Below, in pieces: positions 6,497 through 48,068 of a DNA stretch of 64,000 nucleotides (its first letter is position 1; each line of letters begins with the position of its first letter). A program made the translations under genes and the position numbers. A model generated the notes under the pieces. That model was not told the origin of the DNA and ran no database searches. It was given only the letters and a program-made list of their open reading frames with translations. The stretch comes from Candidatus Multivoradales bacterium (GTDB lineage: Bacteria; Acidobacteriota; Thermoanaerobaculia; Multivoradales; JAHEKO01): the NCBI GenBank assembly GCA_965248055.1, contig CBDFIJ010000004.1, positions 1,756,299 to 1,820,298 of the forward strand, written 5' to 3'.

Positions 6497-7213
6497 GTGC
6501 CCAAAGACACTCCTAACCCAAAAGCCAGTCAGGCTGTCACCGCTCTCGACTCCCGTTGTGACAGCGATGATAGTCGTTCTAATTGTTCGGCACCAACAGG
6601 TTCTCTCCATAGAGAAACACGTTGCTTAACTTGTTGCACACTTATTGAGCCCGGAGCAACAAAGTGCATCCACTGCAACAGCTACCAAAACTACAAAAGA
6701 TACTTTTCAATTGGGCTACCCTTCTTGTCGCTTCTGGTTGCTCTAGCTTCAGTTTTCACCGTTATGATTTCCGAAGTTAGCAAGCTTCCGAGGTCTGAAG
6801 TTCAGATTCGGGTAGTCAAAGTGGAAGTTCGAGACTTTCCCGAGAACTCTCGAAGCACATACGTCCGCCTTTGGATGCAGAACCGCGGAAATCGGCCAGC
6901 AACTGTTCGCAGTATTCACGTTGCTTGGAAGAGCGCTGAGCAGAAAAATAACACCCTGCGCAATCCTGACTACTTCAACGTAGAGACTGCTACCCATCCA
7001 TATCCAGATGGTGGCCGCGCTATTCCGATTGTGCTCTTGTCCGGTGTGACGGGCGTCTTTGAGGTAGTCTGGGAAAGTCATGAAGAGATAATAGAAACCA
7101 CCCCTTGTAGAGTCAGACTTCAAGTACTCAACTGGCGTGGTCAAGCGGAAAAGATGGAACTAGATTGCTGGTCTTGGGGTCACGATGTGGATTCCGATGT
7201 CTGGTCAAGCTAG
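6497..7213 (+). CDS. Low-GC hypothetical protein: a cytoplasmic Zn-ribbon (CLTCC...CIHC), one transmembrane helix and an extracytoplasmic domain
   Basis: GTG start. The composition is well below the window average. The domain order was read directly from the translation. Confidence 0.5.
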   Translation: MPKDTPNPKASQAVTALDSRCDSDDSRSNCSAPTGSLHRETRCLTCCTLIEPGATKCIHCNSYQNYKRYFSIGLPFLSLLVALASVFTVMISEVSKLPRSEVQIRVVKVEVRDFPENSRSTYVRLWMQNRGNRPATVRSIHVAWKSAEQKNNTLRNPDYFNVETATHPYPDGGRAIPIVLLSGVTGVFEVVWESHEEIIETTPCRVRLQVLNWRGQAEKMELDCWSWGHDVDSDVWSS

Positions 7214-7405
7214 AGTGAAATCGTCCTGTGTTCGCAGTTAGGCCACTGTTGTGGAGGCAGAGCCCGGGGCGAAGCTCCAAGATTTTGGGCGTTTGTTTTC
7301 TTGACCCCATCAGGCGGTGGAAAAACCAAGGAAGGAGGCCCTATCTGCCAACGTAGCTGAGACACTTGGCCCCCTGATAATTAGAGGGCGGAAGGAGGTT
7401 TCAGT

Positions 7406-7885
7406 ATGTTTCAGAATCAGCCCATATTGCCCGTCTCGCCGAAGGCGACCGAGGAGCGTAGCGACGAGGGATCCGGAGGGGAGACGGCGCAGTTGTCCTC
7501 GACCCCCGAATCGGTACCCGACCCTGAGATCGAGGCTCGACCCGCCAGACGGCGGTTTACGGCAAAGTACAAGCTGGCGATCTTGGAGCAGGCCGACGCT
7601 TGCTCCAGCCGAGAGGAGGTCGGGTCCCTGTTGCGCCGGGAGGGTCTCTACTCATCTCATCTATCTAACTGGCGCCTAGCTCGGCGACGGGGATCGCTTG
7701 CCGCGCTAGGCAAGAGGCGCGGACGCAAACCCAAAAGGCACCCGTTGGAAAGCAAGGTTGCTCGACTAGAGCGGGAGAAGACTCGGCTTGAGAACGAATT
7801 GCACAGGGCACAGCTGATCATCGATGTGCAAAGAAAAGTAGCCGGGCTGCTGGGTATCCCCTCAGAGGGCGAGAAGAACTCGTGA
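7406..7885 (+). CDS. IS3-family transposase OrfA, with a helix-turn-helix and a leucine zipper
   Basis: 'RRFTAKYKLAILEQAD...' is a typical IS3 OrfA. Its stop overlaps the orfB start. Confidence 0.75.
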   Translation: MFQNQPILPVSPKATEERSDEGSGGETAQLSSTPESVPDPEIEARPARRRFTAKYKLAILEQADACSSREEVGSLLRREGLYSSHLSNWRLARRRGSLAALGKRRGRKPKRHPLESKVARLEREKTRLENELHRAQLIIDVQRKVAGLLGIPSEGEKNS

Positions 7886-8895
7886 AAGCGGCCAGGACGC
7901 TGGCTCCGTGGGTCGGTATCGCACCGGCCTGCCGGAGCCTGAGCGTCAGTCGTGCAACGTTCTATCGTCGGCTTCGGCCGAGATCAACCGAGCCTCAGCA
8001 GCCTCGACCGACTCCAGCTCGGGCACTGACAGTCAGCGAAAAACAACAGGTCCTTGACCTACTCAACGGGCCGCGCTTTGTCGACGCTGCACCGGCGGCC
8101 GTGGTGGCCACCCTTCTCGACGAAGAACGCTATCTGTGCTCGGAGCGCACCATGTACCGACTCCTGGCAGCTGAGAAGACGTTGCAGGAGAGACGGCGCC
8201 AACGCCGCCATCCGGTCTATACCAAGCCAGAGCTACTCGCCACAGCGGCAAACCAAGTCTGGAGCTGGGATATCACCCGGCTGCGAGGTCCGCAGCCGGG
8301 ATGGTGGTTCTATCTCTACGTTGTCCTCGATATCTTCAGCCGCTATGTGGTCGGCTGGATGCTCGCCGAGCACGAACGCGAGGCCTTAGCCCAAAGGCTT
8401 CTCAAGGAGACCTCAACCAAGCAAGGCATTCCCAAGAATCAGCTAACCCTACACAGTGATCGGGGCTCGCCGATGACCGCCAAGGACACCGGACGACTCC
8501 TCGTACGGCTTGGTATCTCTCAGTCGTTCTCGCGGCCTCGCATCTCCAACGATAATCCCTTCTCCGAAGCCCAATTCAAGACCCTCAAGTATCACCCGAG
8601 CTTTCCCGATCGGTTCGGCTCGATCGAGGACGCTATCGCCTTTTGCAGGTCGTTCATTATCTGGTACAACACCCAGCACCGTCACGCCGGCATCGCCATG
8701 CTGACACCCGAAGATGTCCACTACGGCAAGGCCGACCACAAGCTCAAGATCCGTCAACTAGCCCTCGATGAAGCCTGGCGAAACAACCCGCAGCGCTTTG
8801 TCCGAGGAAGACCGACCATTCAGCTACTACCCAGAGCCGTATGGATCAATCCACCCGAACGTCAACATGCCAAGGAGGTCGTCCCGATACACTAA
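7882..8895 (+). CDS. IS3-family transposase OrfB, with a DDE integrase core
   Basis: 'WSWDITRLRG...YLYVVLDIFSRYVVGW...HSDRGSPMTA...YNTQHRHAGI' is an rve-type catalytic core. Confidence 0.85.
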   Translation: MKAARTLAPWVGIAPACRSLSVSRATFYRRLRPRSTEPQQPRPTPARALTVSEKQQVLDLLNGPRFVDAAPAAVVATLLDEERYLCSERTMYRLLAAEKTLQERRRQRRHPVYTKPELLATAANQVWSWDITRLRGPQPGWWFYLYVVLDIFSRYVVGWMLAEHEREALAQRLLKETSTKQGIPKNQLTLHSDRGSPMTAKDTGRLLVRLGISQSFSRPRISNDNPFSEAQFKTLKYHPSFPDRFGSIEDAIAFCRSFIIWYNTQHRHAGIAMLTPEDVHYGKADHKLKIRQLALDEAWRNNPQRFVRGRPTIQLLPRAVWINPPERQHAKEVVPIH

Positions 8896-35771: not shown

Positions 35772-37970
35772 ATGGATCTCGCAACTTGGGCATTGTTGAC
35801 CGCACTCGCGGCGAGCTCTGGCGCCACAGGAGAAGCCCCAGAGGCTCCCGTCGAGGAATCGATCGGAGAGGTACACGCTGTCTTTGACAACTTGACGGTG
35901 GTCGGCAGTGCCGAGACAGCGGGCGGCTCCGCCCATGTCATCGGGCAAGCCCAGTTGGAGGTACACAACTACAACGACGTTCACCGAGTGCTGCGGCAGG
36001 TTCCTGGAGTCAACATTCAAGAAGAAGATGGATTTGGTCTTCGACCCAACATTGGTATTCGAGGAACCGGCGTCGAACGGTCGCAAAAAATCACGTTGAT
36101 GGAGGACGGTGTCCTGATCGCCCCGGCGCCCTATGCAGCACCGGCCGCTTACTACTCTCCGACGGTCGGGCGGATGGAGAGCCTCGAGGTACGCAAAGGC
36201 ACCAGCGCCGTGCGGCAGGGTCCACACACAACCGGGGGGGTGATCAATTATCGTTCGACCAGTATCCCGGAGTCGTTTTCTGGAAAAGCGGAGCTAGCAC
36301 TCGGAACCGATGGTCTGCTCCGAACCCACGCCTATGCGGGCGACAGCAACCAGCGGCTTGGCTGGCTGGTCGAGGGATATCAACTATCCAGCGATGGCTT
36401 CAAGCAGCTCGATACCGCCGACAGTACCGGGTTTGACCTGACCGATCTGGTTGCCAAGTTTCGTCTCTCTTCTCGATCCGATGCCAAGATCTATCAAGCG
36501 GCTGAACTCAAGCTGGGCTGGAATCAGCAAGACGGAGCCGAGACCTATCTCGGTCTTACCGCCGAAGACTTTGAACGCACTCCGTATCGGCGTTACGCCG
36601 GTTCGTCGGCCGATCGCATCGACACGGAACACAATCAGTTTCAGCTATCGTATTTCGCTCAGCTCTCGCCTCGTTTCGACCTAACCGCGGTCGTCTATAA
36701 CAATGAATTTTCGCGCAACTGGCACAAGTTGCAGTCGGTAAATGGACTTGGATTGAATGCCGTCTTGAACGATCCGCAGAACCACTCGGCGGAGATTTCC
36801 GTTCTTCGTGGAGATCTCAACGCGGTCGACAGTCTCTCGGTACGCAACAACCGGCGCGACTACTTCTCGCGCGGCGTGAGCGCATCGCTAGGAGCACACG
36901 TTGACGGACGGATTCGCCACGACCTGGAAGTTGGCGTACGAGTGCATCGCGATGAAGAGGATCGTTTTCAAGAGGAAGACCTCTACAACATGAGCTTTGG
37001 ACAACCCTTGTTGTCTTCACTGGGGGCCCCCGGGAGTCAGTCCAACCGAGTTGCCTCCGCCAACGCAATCGCGGTTTTTTTTGAAGATAGCTTTTCTTTT
37101 GGAAAATGGACCGTAACGCCAGGAGCCCGCTACGAGGTCATCGATCTGGAGCGCCAGGACTATGGACGATCCGATCCCGTTAGAGGAAGTGAGCCAAGGT
37201 CGACGACCAATCGGGTCCGCCAACTGGTTCCCGGAGTCCGGGTGCAACACGTAGTCAATGAACGCAATTTGTGGTTCGCCGGCCTCTACCAAGGTTTCTC
37301 TCCGCCAACCCCGGGATCGAACGAACGGGTCGAGCCCGAGGAAAGCGACAACATTGAAATCGGCTGGCGCTATTCCGGACGCAAGCTAGCGGCCGAAGTC
37401 ACCGGTTTCTACTCAAACTATGGCAACCTGCTTGGCACCGACACGCTCTCAAGCGGTGGTGATGGCACCGGCAACCAGTTCAACGGCGGCAGTGCCTTGG
37501 TGCAAGGACTGGAAGCCGCCGCGACGTGGGAACTGCGACCTTCCCAGTCGGCGCAAGTGCCTCTTCGCTTGGTCTATACCTACACCGACACGGAGTTTCT
37601 CTCCAGTTTTGAAACCAACTTTGCCGACTGGGCGCCTCAAGTGGAACGTGGAGACGAACTCCCGTATGTGCCCAAGCATCAACTGACCCTGGGGGCTACC
37701 TGGAATAGCCCACGTTGGTCGGTTGGCATCGACGGTAACTTGAACGGGGCGATGCGTACCCTTGCTGGCGCTGGCGCAATCCCGTCTGACAGTGGGATCC
37801 CCAGTCGTTGGACCTGGGATCTGGCGATCGAGCGCGACCTGAGCTCTTACCGTCTGTTTCTCCAGGTGCGCAACCTAACCGATAACACCTATTTGGTGGC
37901 GCGGCGACCCGCCGGACTCCGCCCGGGGATGCCAAGAACCGTGGTGGTCGGAGTAAAGGTCGACTTCTAG
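35772..37970 (+). CDS. TonB-dependent outer-membrane receptor
   Basis: Plug domain and a 22-strand barrel with a C-terminal '...VVVGVKVDF' aromatic terminus. The start lies 30 bp after the Fur-family gene. Confidence 0.9.
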   Translation: MDLATWALLTALAASSGATGEAPEAPVEESIGEVHAVFDNLTVVGSAETAGGSAHVIGQAQLEVHNYNDVHRVLRQVPGVNIQEEDGFGLRPNIGIRGTGVERSQKITLMEDGVLIAPAPYAAPAAYYSPTVGRMESLEVRKGTSAVRQGPHTTGGVINYRSTSIPESFSGKAELALGTDGLLRTHAYAGDSNQRLGWLVEGYQLSSDGFKQLDTADSTGFDLTDLVAKFRLSSRSDAKIYQAAELKLGWNQQDGAETYLGLTAEDFERTPYRRYAGSSADRIDTEHNQFQLSYFAQLSPRFDLTAVVYNNEFSRNWHKLQSVNGLGLNAVLNDPQNHSAEISVLRGDLNAVDSLSVRNNRRDYFSRGVSASLGAHVDGRIRHDLEVGVRVHRDEEDRFQEEDLYNMSFGQPLLSSLGAPGSQSNRVASANAIAVFFEDSFSFGKWTVTPGARYEVIDLERQDYGRSDPVRGSEPRSTTNRVRQLVPGVRVQHVVNERNLWFAGLYQGFSPPTPGSNERVEPEESDNIEIGWRYSGRKLAAEVTGFYSNYGNLLGTDTLSSGGDGTGNQFNGGSALVQGLEAAATWELRPSQSAQVPLRLVYTYTDTEFLSSFETNFADWAPQVERGDELPYVPKHQLTLGATWNSPRWSVGIDGNLNGAMRTLAGAGAIPSDSGIPSRWTWDLAIERDLSSYRLFLQVRNLTDNTYLVARRPAGLRPGMPRTVVVGVKVDF

Positions 37971-38077
37971 CGCCGCTCCCCACTTGTCCTGGGACGCCGG
38001 CTCAAGCTGGTTGTGGCAAGATGCCAATTCTTCAGCAACCGGCTTGAAGAGACTGCCGATTCCTCGGGATCGCGATT

Positions 38078-39688
38078 ATGACGAAGAGTCCATCAAAACC
38101 CCGCAAGAGAGCCCCCTATTGGTTGGCAGTGTTCGGCCTGGCGCCAATCTTATTTGCGCCCGTTCCAGCTTTTTTGCGATACCACGGCTGGTCTGTCCTC
38201 ACCATAGATGGACTTGTCCTGGGTCTCATCTGTTTCGCAACTGCCGCATTTTTGTTTCTTATACCTGGCACTCGACGACGCCTATCGTTGAGCGGTGTTT
38301 ACGCTCTCGCGACTCTCTTTTTTTTCGACTTCCAGTTTCAAGCTCTTACCGGTTGGATCACTCTTGCCGGAGCCTTCGGCCTTGTTTTCACAGTCTGTTT
38401 CGGGCTGTTTGAAAAACTTCCGCAATTGACCACCTTTGTCTTCGGCTTGATGAGTCTTTTGGCTTTGTTCTCAGTTCCTAATAGTGACCATCGCGCTGTC
38501 GCTGGGGACCCAAACCTGCCACCGATCGTTTACTTGATCGTCGATGAGCACCTCGGAGTTGGCGGAATTCCAGCACTGGGTCGAGGTCCGGAAATCCAAG
38601 AAATGTTGCGCGATGCGTACATCCAACGGGGATTTAGGATCTACGAAAATGCATACTCTCTCCACGATATGACCCAACACTCCATTGCCTCCATCCTCAA
38701 CGGCTCGGACCGATCCGACGGGTTGGTTGAACCGGGACAGACCTCGAAGTGGAAGGTGACGAAGTCCCGTTTATTGAAACGTTGGGCCGACCAGGGTTAC
38801 CGGATCAATGTCTACCAATCAGACGCGCTCAACCTTTGCGATCTGCGAGAGGTAGAAATCGATTCCTGCTACACCTACAGCGTTTGGAGCCTGACCGGAA
38901 TCCTGGAAGGCTTGCCGTGGTATTCCCGGGAGCGGACCACTAGTGTCCTGTTGGCGATGGCGAACAGATCGCAGATCTTCTCCAAAGCGCGTAGTCAATA
39001 TAACAAGTTCGCGGAGCGTTCTCCGTCACTACCCGAGTGGCCCATTCGTGCTCGACCCCCAGGACCTCTGGCGATTCTTTCAGCCACCAAGGCCCTCCGC
39101 CAAGACTTGGCAAGGCAACCTAGGGGCCATGTCTTTCTTGCTCACTTGCTCCATCCACACTTTCCTTATGTCTACAACCAAGACTGCAGTGTTAAGCCAA
39201 AAGACGAATGGACTGCGCCGAAATGGAACAGGAAGGGCCGGATGCGTGACATGCGCAAAATTAGAGAAGATAACTACCCTGCTTACTTCGATCAGTTGGA
39301 GTGCGCCACGGTGATGGTAAACAAGTTGATTGATGAGATCGGAGAGCAGCCGGAGTTCCACGACGCAACGTTGATCGTTCATGGCGACCATGGCTCCCGT
39401 ATTTGGGTCAAAAAACCACTCACCTATAACAGACCAAGCGAACAAGACCTTATCGATAGCTTTTCCACCCACTTGGCGATCCGGGGCCCAGGCGTTACGC
39501 CTGGCGCCAACCTTCAGCCGGTGTCTGTCAACCAGGCAATCGCCAAGCACTGGGGTCTTCCTCTAAGACTTGAAGATAAGCCCGGGCTGTACGCAAGGCC
39601 GAACCGGAACCAGTTTCCAAGACCCAAGCTTGCTCTACCAGAAATCTGGCGTGACTCAATCACCGATACAATGGATCAGCCAGACTAA
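38078..39688 (+). CDS. Membrane enzyme paralog A: five transmembrane helices plus an alkaline-phosphatase-superfamily (LtaS/EptA/sulfatase-like) catalytic domain
   Basis: Five N-terminal transmembrane helices. Then 'PIVYLIVDEH' (metal-site acidic residue), 'YENAYSLHDMTQHS' (candidate Thr nucleophile about 45 residues later), 'LLHPHFPY' and 'IVHGDHGSR' (Asp-His metal site). Confidence 0.7.
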   Translation: MTKSPSKPRKRAPYWLAVFGLAPILFAPVPAFLRYHGWSVLTIDGLVLGLICFATAAFLFLIPGTRRRLSLSGVYALATLFFFDFQFQALTGWITLAGAFGLVFTVCFGLFEKLPQLTTFVFGLMSLLALFSVPNSDHRAVAGDPNLPPIVYLIVDEHLGVGGIPALGRGPEIQEMLRDAYIQRGFRIYENAYSLHDMTQHSIASILNGSDRSDGLVEPGQTSKWKVTKSRLLKRWADQGYRINVYQSDALNLCDLREVEIDSCYTYSVWSLTGILEGLPWYSRERTTSVLLAMANRSQIFSKARSQYNKFAERSPSLPEWPIRARPPGPLAILSATKALRQDLARQPRGHVFLAHLLHPHFPYVYNQDCSVKPKDEWTAPKWNRKGRMRDMRKIREDNYPAYFDQLECATVMVNKLIDEIGEQPEFHDATLIVHGDHGSRIWVKKPLTYNRPSEQDLIDSFSTHLAIRGPGVTPGANLQPVSVNQAIAKHWGLPLRLEDKPGLYARPNRNQFPRPKLALPEIWRDSITDTMDQPD

Positions 39689-39745
39689 GACGCCGCGTCG
39701 GCTGGACGCTAACGCACTCCAAAGAAACTCCCGACTAAGAGAATC

Positions 39746-39943
39746 ATGATGAGATTCGACACCTCAAGAAACACTGCGTTTGTGATCGCAGCAGTGCTGA
39801 CCATCTGCTTGTTAATTCCGACGCCAAGCTACGCATATCTAGGCCCTGGCACCGGAGGTAGGACCTGGGATCTGGCGATCGAGCGCGACCTGAGCTCTTA
39901 CCGTCTATTTCTCCAGGTGCGCAACCTAACCGATAACACCTAG
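39746..39943 (+). pseudogene. Truncated mini-gene: signal peptide and YLGPGTGG, then fused in-frame to a duplicated copy of the TonB-receptor 3' end
   Basis: The first 38 codons parallel the intact mini-gene at 41769. After 'GTGG' the sequence becomes the copy of 37810..37970 and reads '...RTWDLAIERDL...'. Confidence 0.6.
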
Positions 39944-40021
39944 TTGGTAGCGCGGCGACCCGCCGGACTCTGCCCTGGGATGCCAAGAACCGTGGTGGCC
40001 GGAGCAAAGGTCGACTTCTAG
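39861..40021 (+). repeat. 161-bp duplicate of the 3' end of the TonB-receptor gene (37810..37970), 154 of 161 nt identical
   Basis: Direct nucleotide comparison shows 7 mismatches, one of which creates a premature stop (tatttgg to tagttgg). Confidence 0.9.
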
Positions 40022-40121
40022 ACGCCTGCAAGCGATTGTCGCGAAGCGATCCGTATCTGTGGCAAAATCGAGCGGTTCGGATATTTTGAATAGGGACGCC
40101 CCCGTCCTTGGGATCGCGATT

Positions 40122-41750
40122 ATGACGAAAATGCCATCAATGGCCATAAGGCAGGCACCCTTTAGGTTGGCAGTCGTTGGCCTAGCGCTGATTCTCTTTG
40201 CCCCGATTCCAGCCTTTCTGAGGCATCAAGAGTGGTCCGCGATCAATATCGACGGGGCCATCCTAGGACTACTTTGTCTCGCGATAGCCACACTGGTATT
40301 TCTTATCCCTGGAAGTCGGGGGCGAATCGGATTGAGCACTATCTATGCTCTAGCCATTCTCTGGTTCGTAGATTTTCAATTCCAAATGTTTTCGAGTTGG
40401 ATAGCCTTCGCTGCAGGGTCTGTCGTTGCTTTCGCAGTCTGCGTTGCCCTGTTTGAAAAGCTATCGGAACTAGCAACATTCGTCTTCGGCTTGATGATTC
40501 TTCTGTCATTGATTCCTGTGCGCAGCCGTGACCGCGAGGTAGGCGTAAGCGATCAACGGCTCCCACCGATTGTCTATTTAATCCTTGACGAACACATTGG
40601 GGTTGCAGGTGTTCCCGCTATCGAGCGTGGCCCCGAGATTCAAGAATTATTGCGTCGCGAGTACCTCCAGCGCGGGTTTCGAATCTACGAGAACGCGTAT
40701 TCACTACACGACTTCACTCACCATTCGCTCGCTTCGGTTCTCAACGCCAGTGACCGCAGCGATGGTTTCCTTCTGCCAGGAAAAAAAACCTGGCAGTGGG
40801 GAGTCCGCAAATCTAGTGTGTTGAGACACTGGGTAGATCAAGGATACCGCCTCCGAATCTATCAATCAGACTGGCTGGATCTATGTAACTTGGAGGGAAT
40901 CAAAGTGGAATCTTGCTTCACCTACAGTGCCTGGAGTATTAGCAATCTGGTGGAATATCCGTGGAATTCGGTTGAACGAACTAGTGGGATTCTTGTCGTC
41001 ATAGCGAATCGCTCACAAATTCTTCTTAAGATTCGCGGTTGGTATGACAGCCTTTCCAAGCAGGGTTTTGGAGGCTTGAACCTTCCAATGTGGCCGGTAC
41101 GAGCTAGCCGACCGGGTGCCTTGGTCGTCCGTTCCGCGACCAAGGTATTGCAACACGATCTTGAGTCCAATCCGCGGGGAACCGTTTTTCTCGCTCACCT
41201 GCTACATCCTCATTCTCCTTATGTATATGACGCCAACTGTGGGGTAAAGCCCAAAGGTGATTGGGCGGCACCATCGCTAGATCGAAAAGGTAAGGTAAGG
41301 GCTCTGCGGGAGAGCCGGACGACTCACTATCGTGATTACTTCGATCAGCTCGAGTGTCTAACCACCCAGATAGGAGAGCTAATTGATGCGATTGGTGAAA
41401 GTACCGAGTTGAGAGATGCGACTGTTCTAATCCACGGTGATCATGGGTCTCGTCTTTGGGTCAAACCACCGCGTACCTACAACAAGCCTACTGAAAGAGA
41501 CTTGTTGGATACTTTCTCAACTTTTCTTGCTGTTCGCGGCCCAATGATCCAGCCCGAACTCAATATTGAACCTGTACCCGTAAATCAAATTGTCGCCGAA
41601 CTCGCGGAGGTTCCGTTTGTTCTTCATGACGGTCCCGCGCCATACTCACGACCGAACTACTATGATCCTCCTCGTCACAAGTTGCCCCTTCCGTCGATCT
41701 GGCGGACATCGAACAACACACCTAAGGTCCGTCCGAAAACCCTCAACTAG
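40122..41750 (+). CDS. Membrane enzyme paralog B, same architecture as A (about 55 to 60% identical)
   Basis: Same motifs: 'PIVYLILDEH', 'YENAYSLHDFTHHS', 'LLHPHSPY' and 'LIHGDHGSR'. The start was chosen at MTKMPS, because the sequence gggatcgcgattATGACGAA is conserved with paralog A. Confidence 0.7.
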   Translation: MTKMPSMAIRQAPFRLAVVGLALILFAPIPAFLRHQEWSAINIDGAILGLLCLAIATLVFLIPGSRGRIGLSTIYALAILWFVDFQFQMFSSWIAFAAGSVVAFAVCVALFEKLSELATFVFGLMILLSLIPVRSRDREVGVSDQRLPPIVYLILDEHIGVAGVPAIERGPEIQELLRREYLQRGFRIYENAYSLHDFTHHSLASVLNASDRSDGFLLPGKKTWQWGVRKSSVLRHWVDQGYRLRIYQSDWLDLCNLEGIKVESCFTYSAWSISNLVEYPWNSVERTSGILVVIANRSQILLKIRGWYDSLSKQGFGGLNLPMWPVRASRPGALVVRSATKVLQHDLESNPRGTVFLAHLLHPHSPYVYDANCGVKPKGDWAAPSLDRKGKVRALRESRTTHYRDYFDQLECLTTQIGELIDAIGESTELRDATVLIHGDHGSRLWVKPPRTYNKPTERDLLDTFSTFLAVRGPMIQPELNIEPVPVNQIVAELAEVPFVLHDGPAPYSRPNYYDPPRHKLPLPSIWRTSNNTPKVRPKTLN

Positions 41751-41768
41751 CAATCGCAGGAGAATAAA

Positions 41769-42014
41769 ATGACGTCCTTCAGCTCAAGGAATATGACAGC
41801 CCCAACCTTGGTAGCAGTTGCCCTGTGTCTACTACTATCCCCTACCCCTGGGCATGCATATCTAGACCCTGGCACCGGAGGTATGGCGATTCAGGCGTTG
41901 ATCGCCATCCTCGCCGGAACCTGGCTCGCCATCCGGCTTTTTTGGTCGAGAATCGTTAGATTTTTCAAGCCAAAAGGATCTGATTCGGCATCGCCAGATT
42001 CAGAATCATCGTAG
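41769..42014 (+). CDS. Mini-protein: signal peptide, Y-L-D-P-G-T-G-G, one transmembrane helix, then a basic and acidic tail
   Basis: 81 aa. 'MTAPTLVAVALCLLLSPTPGHA' followed by 'YLDPGTGGMAIQALIAILAGTWLAIRLFWSRIVRFFKPK'. There is a paralogous truncated copy after paralog A. Confidence 0.55.
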   Translation: MTSFSSRNMTAPTLVAVALCLLLSPTPGHAYLDPGTGGMAIQALIAILAGTWLAIRLFWSRIVRFFKPKGSDSASPDSESS

Positions 42015-42057: not shown

Positions 42058-43455
42058 ATGTATAACCCTGTGGAAACTGGCCTCCCTGAAGCTGAAGGGG
42101 GATCGTTTCGCGACCCTCGCGGCCACGTTCATATTGCCAACGGGCGGGTTTTTCGCACCATCTCTCCAGCCGCTTTGGACGACTTCCGTATGGTTGTCGA
42201 ATCCGGAGTGGTCGCCAAGCTCGAAGAGTCTGGCGATCTGGTACCGACCTGGGAGACGGATCAAGCAACCCCGAACACTACCGGTGACGCCAGTGTGGTC
42301 GTTGAGCATCCCTGCTTACCACTCATCAGCTACCCCTACGAATGGCCTTTTCAGCTGCTCAAACGAGCCGCATTGTTTCATCTCGACTTTCATCTCAAGT
42401 GCTTGGAGCACCGGGTGACCCTGACCGATGCGACGGCCTACAACGTCCAGTTTGTCGGGGTACGACCCGTTTTCATCGATCGCTTAGCTCTCAAACCCTA
42501 TTTCGAGGGCGAGTACTGGGCTGGGTATCGTCAGTTTTGCGAGCAGTTTCTCAATCCGCTGCTCCTGTCGTCTTTTCACGGAATCCCAATCCATCAGTGG
42601 TATCGGGGCTCGATTGAGGGAATCTCTGCTCGTGATACCGCCACCCTACTTCCACTGAAACGACGACTATCTCCTCGAGCTTGGATGCACGTGACACTTC
42701 AGGCCCGCCTCAATCGCGAACAGACTGCCCAAGTCTCCGACCGGGTCATCAAGCAACGCCCCTTGCCGCTCCCCGCTCTTCAGAGCATGCTACGGAGCTT
42801 CCACAAGTGGATCTCCCGATTGCAACCTCCTCAACGACCCACCGTTTGGGCAGACTACGACTCCACCCACGGATATACCGATACCGAGCAAGAGAAGAAA
42901 GCTAAAGCGATCGCGCGGTTTATCGAGGGCCACAAGCCAACAACCGTTTGGGACCTGGGTTGCAATACCGGGTTTTACTCGCAGATCGCATTGCAGCACG
43001 GAACGTCCTCAGTGATCGGACTGGACCTGGATGAAGGGGCCTTGGGAGGGGCTTTTGATCGCGCTCAATCCGAAAACCTAACCCTGACACCTTTGTTGTT
43101 CGACGCCGCCAACCCAACCCCGGCACAAGGATGGCGTCTGCGGGAGCGCAGCAGACTCGCTGAACGCTCAACCCCGGATGGCATTCTTGCCTTGGCAGTC
43201 CTGCACCATATGGTCTTAGGCCGCAATATCCCGCTACCGGAGGCGATCAAGTGGCTGGTGGGTCAAGCGAAGTGTGGCGTCATCGAGGCGGTACCCCGCA
43301 CCGACCCACAAGTGAAGCGGATGATGGTCTTTCGAGACCATCATCATGAATATGGGGTTGAAGAGATACGCCAGGAGCTGGCAAGGCAAGCCACCGTCAC
43401 AGAAACCGTCGTGGTATCGGAGTCAGGTCGAGAGTTGTTGTTTTTCAAGCGCTAG
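42058..43455 (+). CDS. Uncharacterised 465-aa protein with a C-terminal class-I SAM-dependent methyltransferase fold
   Basis: 'VWDLGCNTGFYS' is motif I, followed by 'VIGLDLDE'. The N-terminal roughly 270 aa are unrecognised. Confidence 0.6.
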   Translation: MYNPVETGLPEAEGGSFRDPRGHVHIANGRVFRTISPAALDDFRMVVESGVVAKLEESGDLVPTWETDQATPNTTGDASVVVEHPCLPLISYPYEWPFQLLKRAALFHLDFHLKCLEHRVTLTDATAYNVQFVGVRPVFIDRLALKPYFEGEYWAGYRQFCEQFLNPLLLSSFHGIPIHQWYRGSIEGISARDTATLLPLKRRLSPRAWMHVTLQARLNREQTAQVSDRVIKQRPLPLPALQSMLRSFHKWISRLQPPQRPTVWADYDSTHGYTDTEQEKKAKAIARFIEGHKPTTVWDLGCNTGFYSQIALQHGTSSVIGLDLDEGALGGAFDRAQSENLTLTPLLFDAANPTPAQGWRLRERSRLAERSTPDGILALAVLHHMVLGRNIPLPEAIKWLVGQAKCGVIEAVPRTDPQVKRMMVFRDHHHEYGVEEIRQELARQATVTETVVVSESGRELLFFKR

Positions 43456-44901: not shown

Positions 44902-46270
44902 GAGTTATTGTCAAAAGTTGTGTATTGAGCCATCAGGCGGCGATCTGTTTTTGTTTTTCTCCGTCCACGAACTGGAGACCTTCAACGACTTCGGCAATGC
45001 GCCTGTAGCCCTGTAGCCTCCGCCATCGTTTTTCTGCGCTTTGGCACAGCTTGAAGACCATCGAGAGCATGGTTTCTCGCGACAGACAGCCCCGGGTTTT
45101 GGAGGTTCTCAAGCGTACGGTAGCAAAAGTTGATGCGATTGGGTTGGTGGTCCTCAAATGCACCCAGTGCTCAGCCGGGAAATCGTAGAAAGCGAGTAGC
45201 TGGACGCGATCTTTGACCAAGCACTGGACTGCTTTCGGATATTTAGCTTGGTAGATTGCCTGGAATGCATCAAAAGCCCTCTCGGCATCGTGACGTGTCT
45301 GCGCCATCCAGATTTGGTGGATTGCCTGCTTGGCCTTGGGCTGGATCGCCTTGGGGAGCTTATTCAAGACGTTGGCCGTCTTGTGGACCCAGCAGCGCTG
45401 GGTCTTGGTATTTCCCCACACCTGAGCCAGAGCCTTCCAGAAACCCAGATTGCCGTCACCGATTGCGATCTTAGGCTCGAATGTAAGGCCTCTTGCTTCC
45501 AGGCCTCGCAACAGCTCCAGCCATGACGCCTCACTCTCCCGGTAACCGTCTTCAACAGCGATCAGTTCTTTGTTGCCGTCCGCAGTGGCACCAATTAACA
45601 CCAGCAAGCAGAGCTTGGCGTTATCCAGGCGAGCCTTGCAGTAAATGCCGTCAGCCCATACATAGACGTAGCGCTTGGACGAAAGATCGCGCTGCCGCCA
45701 TTCGCTGTACTCCTGGCCCCAGACGCGTTTGAGGCGGCTCACCGTCGAAGACGAAAGACCTGGCGCTTCAGGGCCCACCAAAGCTTCCAGAGCTCGTGAG
45801 AAGTCCCCGGTAGAAATCCCCCGTAAGTATAGCCAGGGCAAGAGATCCGCGATGCTCTTGGACCGGCGCAGATACGGTGGCACTAGATTGGAGCGAAAAT
45901 GAAGCTCACCCTGGCGATCCCGCACCCGTGGCACTTTGACCGAAATGCCGCCGATTCCGGTCTGGATCTCCCGCTCTGGCATGTAGCCGTTTCTCACCAA
46001 CCGCCGGTGACCGACCGCCGTACGTTGATCTTGGTACTCAACCAAAAAACTCTCCACCTCTGCCTCGATTGCTTCGCAAAGAAGCAACCGTGAACCTCGG
46101 CGCAAGACCTCGGTCAGAGCGTCCTCAGGACGCTCTACTTGATCGATTGAAACTACGTTACTCTTGCTCAACGGCGTGTCCTCCTTTTGGGATGATTGAA
46201 CCCAGCTTTGAAAACCGGGCTCAGGATACGCCGCCTTCAAACTCTCATACACAACTTTTGGTTATATCTC
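44902..46270 (-). mobile_element. IS256-family insertion sequence, intact, flanked by a 9-bp direct repeat GAGGCAACG (44893..44901 and 46271..46279)
   Basis: Terminal inverted repeats GAGtTATtgtCAAAAGTTGTGTAT and ATACACAACTTTTGgttATAtCTC. A perfect 9-bp flanking duplication is visible in the sequence. Confidence 0.85.
44933..46252 (-). CDS. IS256-family (mutator-type) transposase
   Basis: 439 aa, with an '...WADGIYCKAR...' DDE region and an IS256-like N-terminus. Confidence 0.85.
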   Translation of the reverse strand: MYESLKAAYPEPGFQSWVQSSQKEDTPLSKSNVVSIDQVERPEDALTEVLRRGSRLLLCEAIEAEVESFLVEYQDQRTAVGHRRLVRNGYMPEREIQTGIGGISVKVPRVRDRQGELHFRSNLVPPYLRRSKSIADLLPWLYLRGISTGDFSRALEALVGPEAPGLSSSTVSRLKRVWGQEYSEWRQRDLSSKRYVYVWADGIYCKARLDNAKLCLLVLIGATADGNKELIAVEDGYRESEASWLELLRGLEARGLTFEPKIAIGDGNLGFWKALAQVWGNTKTQRCWVHKTANVLNKLPKAIQPKAKQAIHQIWMAQTRHDAERAFDAFQAIYQAKYPKAVQCLVKDRVQLLAFYDFPAEHWVHLRTTNPIASTFATVRLRTSKTRGCLSRETMLSMVFKLCQSAEKRWRRLQGYRRIAEVVEGLQFVDGEKQKQIAA

Positions 46271-46496: not shown

Positions 46497-48068
46497 TTGA
46501 CTGACAGCAAACGTAGCTCCACTTCACCGAAGATCTCCTTCTGGACAGCTGTTCTCGCGCTAGCCCTGATTCTTTTCGCTGTCTTCCCACCGTTTTTTCG
46601 TCACCATGGCTTGTCGTTTCTAAGCCTGGAGCTTGTCGCTTTCGCCTTGATCTGCGGTTTTTTATCTAGCGTACTTCACCTCATCCCCGCGACTAGAACG
46701 CGGTGGTTTTCAAGCACAATCTTGGGTGCTGCCTTGACTCTGCTTATCGACATTCAATTCGGTTCGATCTCAAGCGAGCTTTCTCTGATCGGACATCTCT
46801 TCGTCACAACGGGTGTTTGCGTACTTTTGTTTCCCCATGCTCATCGAGTGCTCACGGCGTTCGCTGGAGTTCTTATCCTGCTTTCTCCAACCGTGGCCAC
46901 CAAAAGCACCAGCACTCCCAGTCACCACCAGATCGAACGAGACACTTCGTTGCCGCCGATTGTCTATCTGATTCTCGATGAACACATCGGCATAGGAGGT
47001 ATCTCCAATCAGTTTGTACAAGAGCGCACCAAGATTCTCGGTGAATACATACAACGGGGATTCCTAGTCTACGAAAACGCTTACTCACTGCACGACATGA
47101 CTCTTGCATCCATGGGATCTCTTCTTAATGCCCGCCCGACAGTTGAGCATGCGATCGAAGGCAATCGTCAAGAAGGCTTCTCTTTATCGAAATCTGTACT
47201 CTTTCGGTATTGGGCAGATCTAGGATATCGCTTCTCTATCTATCAATCTGAGTATCTTGATTACTGCTCTGCAGCAAAACCGGCGGTCGACCTCTGCATA
47301 ACCTACGATCAATACATTGGGCTCGACGTTCTGAAACCTCTTGAGACCATCGACTACACGGTCACCGCACTATTCTCAAGATCCGAGATTGCTATGAAAG
47401 GAAGGGTCCGTTACAACTTTCTACGTAACAAGGTACCCCAGTCGATACGGCCGCCACGATTGCCTCCGCCGCCAACCGGCTCTTGGGCGGCAAGATCTCG
47501 TGTCGCATTGGATGAGATGCGCAAACAGGCGCTTGTCGACCCAGAAGGAAGAGTATTCTTTGCACACCTACTCCATCCGCACAAACCGCACATCTATGAC
47601 CAGGAGTGCCGCCCAAGGAGGTCGACGAGGTCGTCGATCCTTTCGTCTTCGCATTACATGGACCAAGTGTTGTGCATTACAAAGCAGCTCGGCGAAACCC
47701 TTGACGAATTGCTCTCGCTCCCTTCATTCAAAGATGCTGTGGTAGTTGTCCACGGAGATCACGGTCCTAGGCTTATGGGGGATCTTGCGCTCAATGGTGA
47801 CAAGGAGATCCCACAGGAATTCATCATTGATAGGTTTTCAACATTCCTTGCGATAAAGACACCTGAAGTTGCTTCTGGTATAACTCGGTTTCCCACTTCG
47901 ATCAACTCAGAAATTCCTGCAATTTGGTCTATACCCAACTCCGTACCCCACAAACCTATGCTTCAATTGACCCAAAACCTTATGACGGTTGAGTCACTGA
48001 CAGATCGGAAAGTGCAGGCCATCAACCTTCCGGATTTTTGGGGTTTATCGGTGTCCATGAAGCCTTGA
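46497..48068 (+). CDS. Membrane enzyme paralog C (about 35 to 40% identical to A and B), TTG start
   Basis: 'PIVYLILDEHIGIGG', 'YENAYSLHDMT', 'LLHPHKPH' and 'VVHGDHGPR'. RBS 'aggag' 8 nt before the TTG. Confidence 0.65.
   Translation: MTDSKRSSTSPKISFWTAVLALALILFAVFPPFFRHHGLSFLSLELVAFALICGFLSSVLHLIPATRTRWFSSTILGAALTLLIDIQFGSISSELSLIGHLFVTTGVCVLLFPHAHRVLTAFAGVLILLSPTVATKSTSTPSHHQIERDTSLPPIVYLILDEHIGIGGISNQFVQERTKILGEYIQRGFLVYENAYSLHDMTLASMGSLLNARPTVEHAIEGNRQEGFSLSKSVLFRYWADLGYRFSIYQSEYLDYCSAAKPAVDLCITYDQYIGLDVLKPLETIDYTVTALFSRSEIAMKGRVRYNFLRNKVPQSIRPPRLPPPPTGSWAARSRVALDEMRKQALVDPEGRVFFAHLLHPHKPHIYDQECRPRRSTRSSILSSSHYMDQVLCITKQLGETLDELLSLPSFKDAVVVVHGDHGPRLMGDLALNGDKEIPQEFIIDRFSTFLAIKTPEVASGITRFPTSINSEIPAIWSIPNSVPHKPMLQLTQNLMTVESLTDRKVQAINLPDFWGLSVSMKP

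Follow-up and report, generated by a model that had tools for sequence, protein, structure and literature searches.

The host-range nodulation genes noeA and noeB have been known since 1995 and, to our knowledge, still have no biochemical function. We report on a small gene that accompanies their homologues in a 64,000-nucleotide stretch of DNA from Candidatus Multivoradales bacterium (Acidobacteriota; assembly GCA_965248055.1, contig CBDFIJ010000004.1, positions 1,756,299 to 1,820,298 of the forward strand). This whole stretch is called the window below, and all coordinates refer to it. The gene, called mini, lies at 41769..42014, encodes a protein of 81 amino acids (aa) and is an ordinary member of a family of micro-proteins associated with NoeA and NoeB. 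The unit to which it belongs is a three-gene cassette consisting of mini, noeA and a noeB-like gene.

The closest description concerns Legionella, which carries homologous noeA/noeB cassettes (PMC9758233). The NoeA homologues there (Lani_1194) combine an atypical kinase-like domain with a class I methyltransferase, an architecture comparable to that of WbdD (Krysińska et al. 2022, PMC9758233). The NoeB homologue Lani_1195 has the alkaline-phosphatase fold, with HHpred matches to EptA (3e-27) and also to YejM. Among 816 neighbourhoods of NoeA homologues, a small hypothetical protein of the Lani_1193 type was present in 65% and a NoeB homologue in 38%. Lani_1193 itself (Legionella anisa, KTC72969.1) has about 65 aa and no CDD hit, and the published SignalP 6 values for the Legionella neighbours are borderline (signal-peptide probability 0.08-0.73, cleavage at residues 18-28; PMC9758233). 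Lani_1193 very probably belongs to the mini family, an equivalence that we infer from its published description. If so, there is one passing remark in the literature, from 2022, on the linkage of the small gene to NoeA. Our searches turned up no other description of the family signature, its presence in the classical nod operon, its constant pairing with NoeB-like enzymes, or the exchange of NoeA for a TagF-like enzyme.

Two other micro-proteins serve as precedents. BcsF belongs to the phosphoethanolamine-cellulose module of E. coli, whose operon bcsEFG also encodes a phosphoethanolamine (pEtN) transferase of the alkaline-phosphatase fold; it crosses the membrane once, and beyond a kink its helix runs on as an amphipathic extension with a tail that recruits the cytosolic BcsE (PMC11470070). 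DltX is a membrane micro-protein of the dlt operon, which is responsible for the D-alanylation of teichoic acids, and acts as an acyl shuttle (PMC12148441).

The mini gene and its family

The gene and its ribosome-binding site are as follows.

41769..42014, + strand: intact mini gene, 81 aa plus stop (open reading frame (ORF) call and sequence)
41758..41762, + strand: Shine-Dalgarno sequence AGGAG, 6 nt 5' of the mini ATG (read from the sequence)

The full sequence of the mini-protein is MTSFSSRNMTAPTLVAVALCLLLSPTPGHAYLDPGTGGMAIQALIAILAGTWLAIRLFWSRIVRFFKPKGSDSASPDSESS. It can be divided into the segments MTSFSSRNMTAPTLVAVALCLLLSPTPGHA / YLDPGTGG / MAIQALIAILAGTWLAIRLFW / SRIVRFFKPKG / SDSASPDSESS. 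Residues 1-30 resemble a signal peptide and end in P-G-H-A. The motif YLDPGTGG follows as residues 31-38 (DNA 41859-41882), the transmembrane helix spans residues 36-57 and carries the family-invariant Gln at position 42, and residues 59-66 form a basic amphipathic helix that precedes an acidic, Ser-rich tail. An AlphaFold2 model, built from an alignment of 67 sequences, contains helices at 11-22 (the core of the signal peptide), 36-57 (the transmembrane helix, with a predicted local distance difference test score (pLDDT) of about 90) and 59-66 (the short amphipathic helix); the tail is disordered. Both the ORF sequence and the model helices thus bear out the layout proposed in the initial annotation of this DNA, namely a signal peptide, a short motif, one helix and a basic segment.

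The same annotation had reported a second ORF with this motif at 39746, and had placed each of the two directly 3' of a sulfatase-like paralog. The placement is accurate (the paralogs, A and B, occupy 38078..39688 and 40122..41750). The degenerate DNA pattern for Y-x-(G/D)-P-G-(T/A)-G occurs at two sites in the 64-kb window, both in these ORFs, while 100 shuffles gave an expectation of 0; since the pattern sits only at the two ORFs and none is expected by chance, the original observation is correct. The upstream ORF is of a different nature and is considered in the last section.

A word-indexed protein search with the single 81-aa sequence matched only the sequence itself. Relatives were first found by a motif scan of the loci that carry the neighbouring enzyme (see below), and a profile hidden Markov model (HMM) was built from 36 sequences, including the window protein. 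The word-indexed search was then repeated. When given the 36-sequence alignment, this search matched at least 7,950 clusters at 90% identity; the proteins listed have about 67-118 aa, no Pfam domain, and are called "hypothetical" at best. When 1.84 billion representatives were searched exhaustively with the profile, 11,882 matched at E<=1e-3 and 4,404 at E<=1e-10; these are cluster representatives at 50% identity, and 11,882 is a lower bound for the family. The best 150 of the 11,882 matches are stand-alone small proteins of 62-136 aa.

The window protein matches the family HMM over residues 1-81 (E=1.4e-24, 85 bits), a value that is partly circular, as the protein is itself one of the 36 sequences of the profile. 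Independently of the profile, tblastn with the window protein alone matched small ORFs in 53 of the 80 loci selected by the enzyme. Its identity to the 35 other family members is 25-40%.

Pfam-A and NCBIfam contain no convincing model for the window protein or for the family members scanned. DUF3188 (E=0.065) and the small subunit of N-ATPase TIGR03165 (0.004, 4 of 36 members) were considered and set aside as generic transmembrane-helix similarity, and the JGI label "ATP synthase subunit a" on one member was treated in the same way. A similar "YIGPGAG + transmembrane helix" module may occur at the C-terminus of some nucleotide-pyrophosphatase-family proteins; it was not used as evidence.

In the numbering of the window protein, the invariant positions of the family are A30, Y31, L32, D33, P34, G35, G37, Q42, L57 and W59; T36, G46, G47, G50, K56 and Y58 are invariant or nearly so. 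Conservation is distributed very unevenly. The mean pairwise identity, computed for 56 non-redundant members from the enzyme-selected loci, is 15% in the N-terminal hydrophobic region of the signal, 57% in the A-x-A triplet ahead of the motif, 85% in YLDPGTGS (the highest of all segments), 40% in the transmembrane helix, 44% in the 11 juxtamembrane residues past the helix and 13% in the tail. The net charge just past the helix in the same members is +4.5.

Individual positions were counted in a set of 119 sequences, which is partly motif-selected and was pre-filtered to Y/F/W/H and D/E/N at the Tyr and Asp positions. Ala occurs at -3 in 102/119 and at -1 in 112/119 members of this partly selected set. 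Tyr and Asp are invariant in the 36 enzyme-selected members and in 67 database homologues, as well as in 119/119 sequences of the pre-filtered set. The hydroxyl position of the motif is Thr in 114, Ser in 3 and Ala in 2 of the 119. The motif variants YLDPATGS, YLDGATGS, YLDGNSGS and QYLDPGASS (the last with Ala at the Thr position, in two loci) reduce its hard core to Y-L-D, T/S-G-S and then Gln.

The window protein conforms to this signature. For the element A-x-A/YLDPGTG(S/A/G)/Gln it reads G-H-A/YLDPGTGG/MAIQ, deviating by Gly at -3 (found in 3/119 members) and Gly at motif position 8 (2/119). The helix is followed by R-L-F-W-S-R-I-V-R-F-F-K-P-K, which corresponds to the (K/R)-L-(Y/F)-W-x-(R/K) element; Phe replaces Tyr at this position in 25/119 members.

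The poorly conserved hydrophobic N-terminus ending in A-x-A is predicted to be a cleavable Sec signal peptide. The mature protein would then have about 51 aa and start at the invariant Tyr, at the periplasmic surface of the membrane; according to the model, about five residues would remain outside the helix on this side. The helix carries the invariant Gln and a small-residue face rich in Gly and Ala (GGxAG), and the protein is predicted to be bitopic in the inner membrane. The amphipathic helix (K/R)-L-Y-W-x-(R/K)-x-K-x-F-F and the variable, charged, disordered tail are placed in the cytoplasm, again as a prediction.

One member deserves separate mention: in a Vicinamibacteria metagenome-assembled genome (MAG; locus L019, 5503-5878) a frameshift splits the gene inside the motif (…AYLRPWHR / …DPGTGSMALQ…), which is either a sequencing error or a pseudogene.

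Association with noeA and noeB

The other genes of the cassette, together with the remaining enzyme paralogs of the window, are listed below.

42058..43455, + strand: NoeA homologue, 465 aa; N-terminal domain of ~270 aa and a class I S-adenosylmethionine (SAM) methyltransferase domain
40122..41750, + strand: NoeB-like paralog B, 542 aa; weak Pfam Sulfatase match, AlphaFold2 model, homology to the noeB region of S. medicae
38078..39688, + strand: NoeB-like paralog A, 536 aa; N-terminal transmembrane domain and alkaline-phosphatase/sulfatase-fold domain (PF00884, 2e-9)
46497..48068, + strand: third NoeB-like paralog, 523 aa; its identity to A and B is about 34%

With 18 nt between them, mini (41769-42014) follows paralog B, whose last position is 41750; a further 43 nt separate mini from the start of the NoeA homologue at 42058. 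The latter gene, unmentioned in the initial annotation, is the steadiest immediate neighbour of mini. Its 465-aa product is 41% identical to what is annotated as "nodulation protein NoeA" on symbiotic plasmids of Sinorhizobium and Ensifer, over residues 10-465 (98% of the length), and on sequence grounds we identify it as a NoeA homologue. Pfam matches and motifs of the methyltransferase lie at residues 287-385. The N-terminal domain of about 270 aa has no Pfam match and retrieved nothing in the PDB profile search, in which the match of NoeA was limited to the SAM-binding motif of assorted methyltransferases; the kinase-like fold of this domain is taken from the Legionella study (PMC9758233).

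The window paralogs that had been called sulfatase-like are, to judge from homology, NoeB homologues consisting of a membrane domain and an alkaline-phosphatase/sulfatase-fold domain, with catalysis predicted. Paralog B is 27% identical to the noeB region of S. medicae over 381 aa, and the proteins A and B are 56% identical to each other. For paralog B the longest ORF begins with GTG 40059; ATG 40122 (MTKMPSMA…) corresponds in the alignment to the start of paralog A (MTKSPSKP…), and the database protein P0002 starts there, too. The AlphaFold2 model of paralog B (pLDDT 88.6) has five N-terminal helices followed by an alpha/beta domain. Its Foldseek matches to sulfatase folds have probability 1.0 at TM-scores of 0.35-0.39, which is a loose similarity. 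Sequence and fold searches of the PDB with the enzyme gave generic matches to sulfatases, LtaS and choline sulfatase, and EptA was absent from the top list.

A Thr nucleophile with the corresponding metal ligands is typical of phosphotransferases, EptA and LtaS among them, and Cys/formylglycine of sulfatases. In the enzyme-family alignment D156, H359, H364, D440 and H441 are invariant, T199 is nearly invariant and lies about 43 residues past D156, and the metal motif HGDHG is present. We therefore regard the NoeB-like enzymes as probably carrying the EptA/LtaS-type Thr-nucleophile pattern and not the sulfatase type.

The neighbourhood was surveyed in two sets. The enzyme-seeded set comprises 80 loci from reference genomes, fetched with the NoeB-like enzyme family. 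By the motif scan and then the profile HMM, the mini gene was found in 58 of them, in Alpha-, Gamma- and "Delta"-proteobacteria (Pseudomonadota), Acidobacteriota, Myxococcota, Gemmatimonadota, Nitrospirota, Binatia and Legionellales MAGs. Conservation of the small ORF beside the sulfatase-like enzyme in other genomes, a check proposed beforehand in the initial annotation, is thus confirmed in many phyla. A homologue of the 465-aa gene is present in 54/80 loci. In the HMM tally all three genes occur together in 52/80, mini and the enzyme without the 465-aa gene in 6/80, and the 465-aa gene and the enzyme without mini in 2/80 (one is a contig of 1.8 kb, and in the other noeA lies 3.5 kb off). 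The enzyme is alone in the remaining 20/80, as is the third paralog of the window.

The commonest order in this set is mini>noeA>noeB. Mini and noeA are an estimated 2-105 nt apart, and several loci show a 4-nt overlap of the called ORFs; such closeness suggests, in many cases, translational coupling. The window order enzyme>mini>noeA recurs in nine other loci, and in nine further ones noeA is divergent and mini lies directly upstream of the enzyme. Clustering of the flanking ORFs of at least 90 aa in the enzyme-seeded loci revealed no other widely common family. Three contigs fetched by exact mini sequences likewise contain, in this order, mini, a protein of ~465 aa and one of 517-570 aa, with unrelated flanks.

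The mini-seeded set comprises 80 metagenome loci obtained with the mini profile and selected for the canonical motif, of which 36 have enough flank. NoeA and a NoeB-like enzyme are both present in 28 of the 36. In 5/36 a gene for a TagF-like glycerophosphotransferase (PF04464) stands in the place of NoeA next to a NoeB-like enzyme; NoeA alone was found in 2/36 and the TagF-like gene alone in 1/36. The NoeB-like enzyme is thereby the steadiest partner in this set (33/36). The TagF-like gene directly follows mini in loci L092 (1194-6345), L115 (1606-6595), L091, L099, L083 and L129, and the NoeB-like enzyme is next in five of the six. Just upstream in L092 and L115 there is an ABC exporter (ABC_membrane + ABC_tran). 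That a TagF-like enzyme can take the place of NoeA while mini and NoeB stay points to a general design: a cytoplasmic builder of phospho-groups, a micro-protein, and a periplasmic transferase of the alkaline-phosphatase fold. Among 146 mini genes no in-frame fusion of mini with NoeA or NoeB was found.

Taken together, the mini gene is real and widespread, and its synteny with noeA and noeB is fixed. Several loci show further peculiarities. The TagF-type loci contain two more conserved ORFs of about 417 and 350 aa that match nothing in Pfam; the shorter one is on the opposite strand, overlaps other called ORFs and may be a shadow ORF. Parts of the cassette are commonly multiplied outside the window as well. 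L042 (5568-11193) and L005 (2750-4502) each have two intact mini genes. L068 (953-7800) has four tandem NoeB-like genes with mini on the opposite strand, and L163 (9780-13271) has two tandem NoeB-like genes, as do the loci up to L165.

The association extends to the classical nodulation operon of Sinorhizobium. On pSymA of S. medicae, U8C40_26645 (WQO68017.1) is a 71-aa "hypothetical protein" encoded between nodL and noeA and overlapping the start of noeA. Its sequence includes MPIIMSVLGFLILSIVPAHAYLDPGTGSMLVQGLIGALAIGGAAVSGYWNKIRW... and ...VPAHAYLDPGTGSMLVQ...; the mini signature is AHAYLDPGTGS...Q...YW. Judging by this sequence, the ORF belongs to the same family, and the Sinorhizobium nodL-noeA-noeB operon holds a mini gene. 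The region after noeA encodes a homologue of the window enzyme and corresponds to noeB. In the gene table of this plasmid (locus L081, 6386-9162) there is no coding sequence at the noeB position; the longest ORF, 6689-8053 (454 aa, TTG start), is the homologue of the window enzyme and apparently lacks some of the membrane domain at its N-terminus. This means that either an entry is missing from the table or the strain carries noeB as a pseudogene. As for Legionella relatives, a Legionellales MAG (L063) has a mini gene of the GYLDGNSGS variant directly upstream of its noeA homologue.

The matter has some importance beyond this window. Homologous noeA/noeB cassettes are spread over many phyla of mostly uncultured bacteria, and they appear to have an obligatory third component of ~50 aa (mature), with a near-invariant motif of eight residues at the membrane surface, that is so far unnamed and unannotated and is covered by neither Pfam nor NCBIfam. 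Knock-outs or reconstitutions of noeA/noeB that omit mini may fail. At the same time, mass spectrometry and mutagenesis can readily be applied to the peptide, which offers a testable handle on the biochemistry of NoeA and NoeB.

Possible roles of the mini-protein

The initial annotation had suggested a small regulatory membrane subunit or a dedicated acceptor peptide, and these remain the two leading hypotheses. We tentatively favour the first, at somewhat less than an even chance: mini would be a bitopic micro-protein of the inner membrane, the third and so far unnamed component of the noeA-noeB cassette, acting as a stoichiometric transmembrane adaptor similar to BcsF. The cytoplasmic helix and tail would dock the soluble NoeA (kinase-like domain and methyltransferase), or the TagF-like enzyme in some cassettes, at the membrane. 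The transmembrane helix and the external motif would pack against the five-helix membrane domain of NoeB and its periplasmic domain of the alkaline-phosphatase fold. Such an adaptor would couple the building of a phospho-group in the cytoplasm to its transfer, in the periplasm, onto an envelope or secreted glycolipid, and one mini with one noeA might serve up to three noeB paralogs in the genome of the window.

The comparison with BcsF rests on several likenesses. BcsF, too, is a single-pass peptide of the inner membrane (~60-80 aa) whose operon encodes a cytosolic protein of ~500 aa, BcsE, and a protein of ~550 aa with the alkaline-phosphatase fold, BcsG. The AlphaFold2 model of mini shares with BcsF the succession of helix, kink, amphipathic helix and tail, the two being compared by layout alone. 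The cytosolic partners are unrelated: BcsE is a sensor of cyclic di-GMP, whereas NoeA is a kinase-methyltransferase. BcsF is not known to have a signal peptide or a conserved extracytoplasmic motif.

Several considerations weigh against an adaptor. The best-conserved segment (85% pairwise identity) is extracytoplasmic and beyond the reach of NoeA, while a plain tether needs neither a signal peptide nor a near-invariant motif outside the cytoplasm. Since no fusion to NoeA or NoeB exists among the 146 mini genes, there is no Rosetta-stone support either. BcsF and the transferase BcsG, in the precedent, are not in contact (PMC11470070), and the borderline SignalP 6 values published for the Legionella neighbours (0.08-0.73, PMC9758233) make the cleavage uncertain. 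Finally, the contact of mini with NoeA and NoeB is itself hypothetical.

The main rival is that mini is a covalent acceptor or shuttle of the DltX kind, which is essentially the acceptor peptide of the initial annotation; we consider this possible, if on balance unlikely. Tyr31 or the Thr/Ser of the motif would take a phosphoryl-type group (e.g., phosphoglycerol, phosphoethanolamine or methyl-phosphate) from the Thr site of NoeB or give one to it, mini being either the final substrate or a covalent relay. It speaks for such a role that the extracytoplasmic motif is the most conserved segment, with Tyr and Asp in every aligned sequence and mostly Thr at the hydroxyl position, and that the NoeB-like enzyme is the most constant partner (33/36) while the cytoplasmic one is exchangeable between NoeA and the TagF-like enzyme. 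NoeB has a nucleophile position of the Thr type and HGDHG, in line with the published HHpred match of its Legionella homologue to EptA (3e-27). The model leaves some five residues outside the helix, near the plane of the membrane. Active sites of the EptA type are expected to work close to this plane.

In the precedent, an invariant extracellular Tyr of DltX carries D-Ala between DltB and DltD (PMC12148441). Both DltX and mini are membrane micro-proteins encoded in operons of envelope-modifying enzymes, both have an invariant Tyr in a short conserved juxtamembrane motif outside the cytoplasm, and DltX bridges a cytoplasm-facing and an outward-facing enzyme, as is proposed for mini. There are also differences. 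DltX has a C-terminal FXYXXF motif, an acyl cargo and partners of the MBOAT and SGNH families (DltB/DltD); in mini the motif comes to lie at the N-terminus once the signal is cleaved as predicted, its conserved neighbours comprise NoeA, NoeB or the TagF-like enzyme, and the features that define DltX are absent. The chemistry of a shuttle would be phosphoryl instead of acyl. Moreover, two loci have Ala at the Thr position (QYLDPGASS), a purely periplasmic role would leave unexplained why the KLYWxRxKxFF helix in the cytoplasm is conserved and why mini lies so close to the gene of the cytoplasmic NoeA, and covalent modification of mini is a postulate.

A more specific proposal is that mini is a covalent carrier of phospho-groups, the phosphoryl counterpart of DltX, in which the Tyr or Thr36 links the chemistry of NoeA or the TagF-like enzyme to the transfer by NoeB. 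We think it rather unlikely; if true, it would account for the role of the noeA/noeB host-range genes.

Mini might also assist with a lipid headgroup, an improbable option in our opinion. The T-G-S cap and the intramembrane Gln would bind, or help to flip, the phosphate headgroup of a lipid-linked intermediate that NoeA or the TagF-like enzyme makes in the cytoplasm and that NoeB receives in the periplasm. Phosphate is commonly bound by Gly-rich loops that have Ser/Thr at the N-terminus of a helix; Gln42 is invariant and lies one turn into the helix, which has a small-residue face. The exchange of NoeA for a TagF-like enzyme with NoeB kept would also suit a common lipid-linked phospho-intermediate crossing the membrane. 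Nevertheless, the proposal is entirely inferential, a single helix is a weak candidate for a flippase, and in some TagF-type loci the ABC exporter could do the flipping.

We see hardly any chance that nearly the entire mini-protein is a sorting signal of the C-terminal type (similar to PEP-CTERM or GlyGly-CTERM), read by an enzyme like exosortase or rhombosortase. The initial annotation had noted the resemblance, and the order of the elements (short motif, hydrophobic transmembrane helix, basic cluster) is indeed the same; this layout is all that fits. PEP-CTERM and GlyGly-CTERM form the C-terminal end of large secreted proteins, from which dedicated sortase-like enzymes cut them off, whereas the motif of mini is at the N-terminus of the mature protein and its conserved neighbours are NoeA and NoeB. 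No NCBIfam family matched the window protein at E<=1, and no TIGR/NCBIfam sorting-signal (CTERM) model was found among the 36 relatives. There is no passenger domain, the best listed matches having 62-136 aa and the 146 genes no fusion. No sortase-like gene occurs among the conserved neighbours, most flanking genes being unannotated, and the genes scanned in the 64-kb window are housekeeping genes or a transposase. With no model match, no passenger and no such gene among the conserved neighbours, this reading is rejected.

That mini is a chance ORF or an untranslated spacer is practically excluded: its small size and missing annotation are all that speak for it, and it is refuted by the conservation of the protein across phyla with variable DNA, thousands of homologues, a strong ribosome-binding site and fixed synteny.

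The upstream relic and the tandem duplication

The initial annotation had further stated that the pairing of mini with the enzyme is conserved across two paralogous units. The two units do not amount to independent evidence for this. The features concerned are given below.

39746..39943, + strand: chimeric relic ORF, 65 aa; the head of mini fused in frame to a copy of the C-terminus of a TonB receptor, with a premature TAG
39858..40021, + strand: copied 3' end of the TonB-dependent receptor gene, 164 nt, 95% identical; start of the second repeat unit
37807..37970, + strand: the receptor's own 3' end (TonB-dependent receptor gene, 35772..37970), with which the first repeat unit starts

The head of the relic, 39746-39857, reads MMRFDTSRNTAFVIAAVLTICLLIPTPSYA / YLGPGTGG and then changes abruptly. 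In the motif Gly replaces the family-invariant Asp. What comes after GG is the tail of the TonB receptor, with no transmembrane helix, no Gln and no LYW segment, and the reading frame is closed by a TAT>TAG change in the copied tail. The match to the mini-family HMM is weak (E=1.3e-5) and covers the head only. Lacking the Asp, the helix with its Gln, and the LYW segment, 39746..39943 is a relic and not a member of the mini family; the label "truncated", which it had been given before, was apt, the ORF being a head followed by the receptor-tail copy.

The order of the elements is [receptor tail + enzyme + mini head] twice, then the remainder of the mini gene, with a repeat period of about 2,051 nt throughout. 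Such a doubling, followed by a single remainder of mini, is what a tandem duplication of 37807..39857 leaves behind. The upstream copy is a scar of this event (~2.05 kb), one broken junction fragment without function. Since it arose from this one duplication, the two pairs are not independent evidence; it has lost the helix, its Asp has become Gly, and the third paralog has no mini at all. For the window itself, then, mini is an ordinary family member, and the apparent two conserved pairs are a duplication artefact.

The history of the repeat is more complex than a single event. Between the two units (window 37807-41883) the identity is 96% in the first ~100 nt and then about 50-68% over the remaining 1.9 kb. 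A single simple tandem duplication, considered as the full account, explains the architecture and not this uneven divergence; given the drop from 96% to ~60%, gene conversion or a second event is needed. The simplest idea that we can offer is that the live receptor gene converts the dead copy of its tail.

The third paralog (46497..48068) has neither a mini gene nor noeA next to it and lies beyond tyrS and a Mutator-family transposase. The transposase gene (IS256-like, 44933-46252, - strand, PF00872 2e-63) stands between the noeB-noeB-mini-noeA cluster with tyrS, on one side, and the third paralog, on the other; it may have helped to separate or move the noeB-like paralogs.

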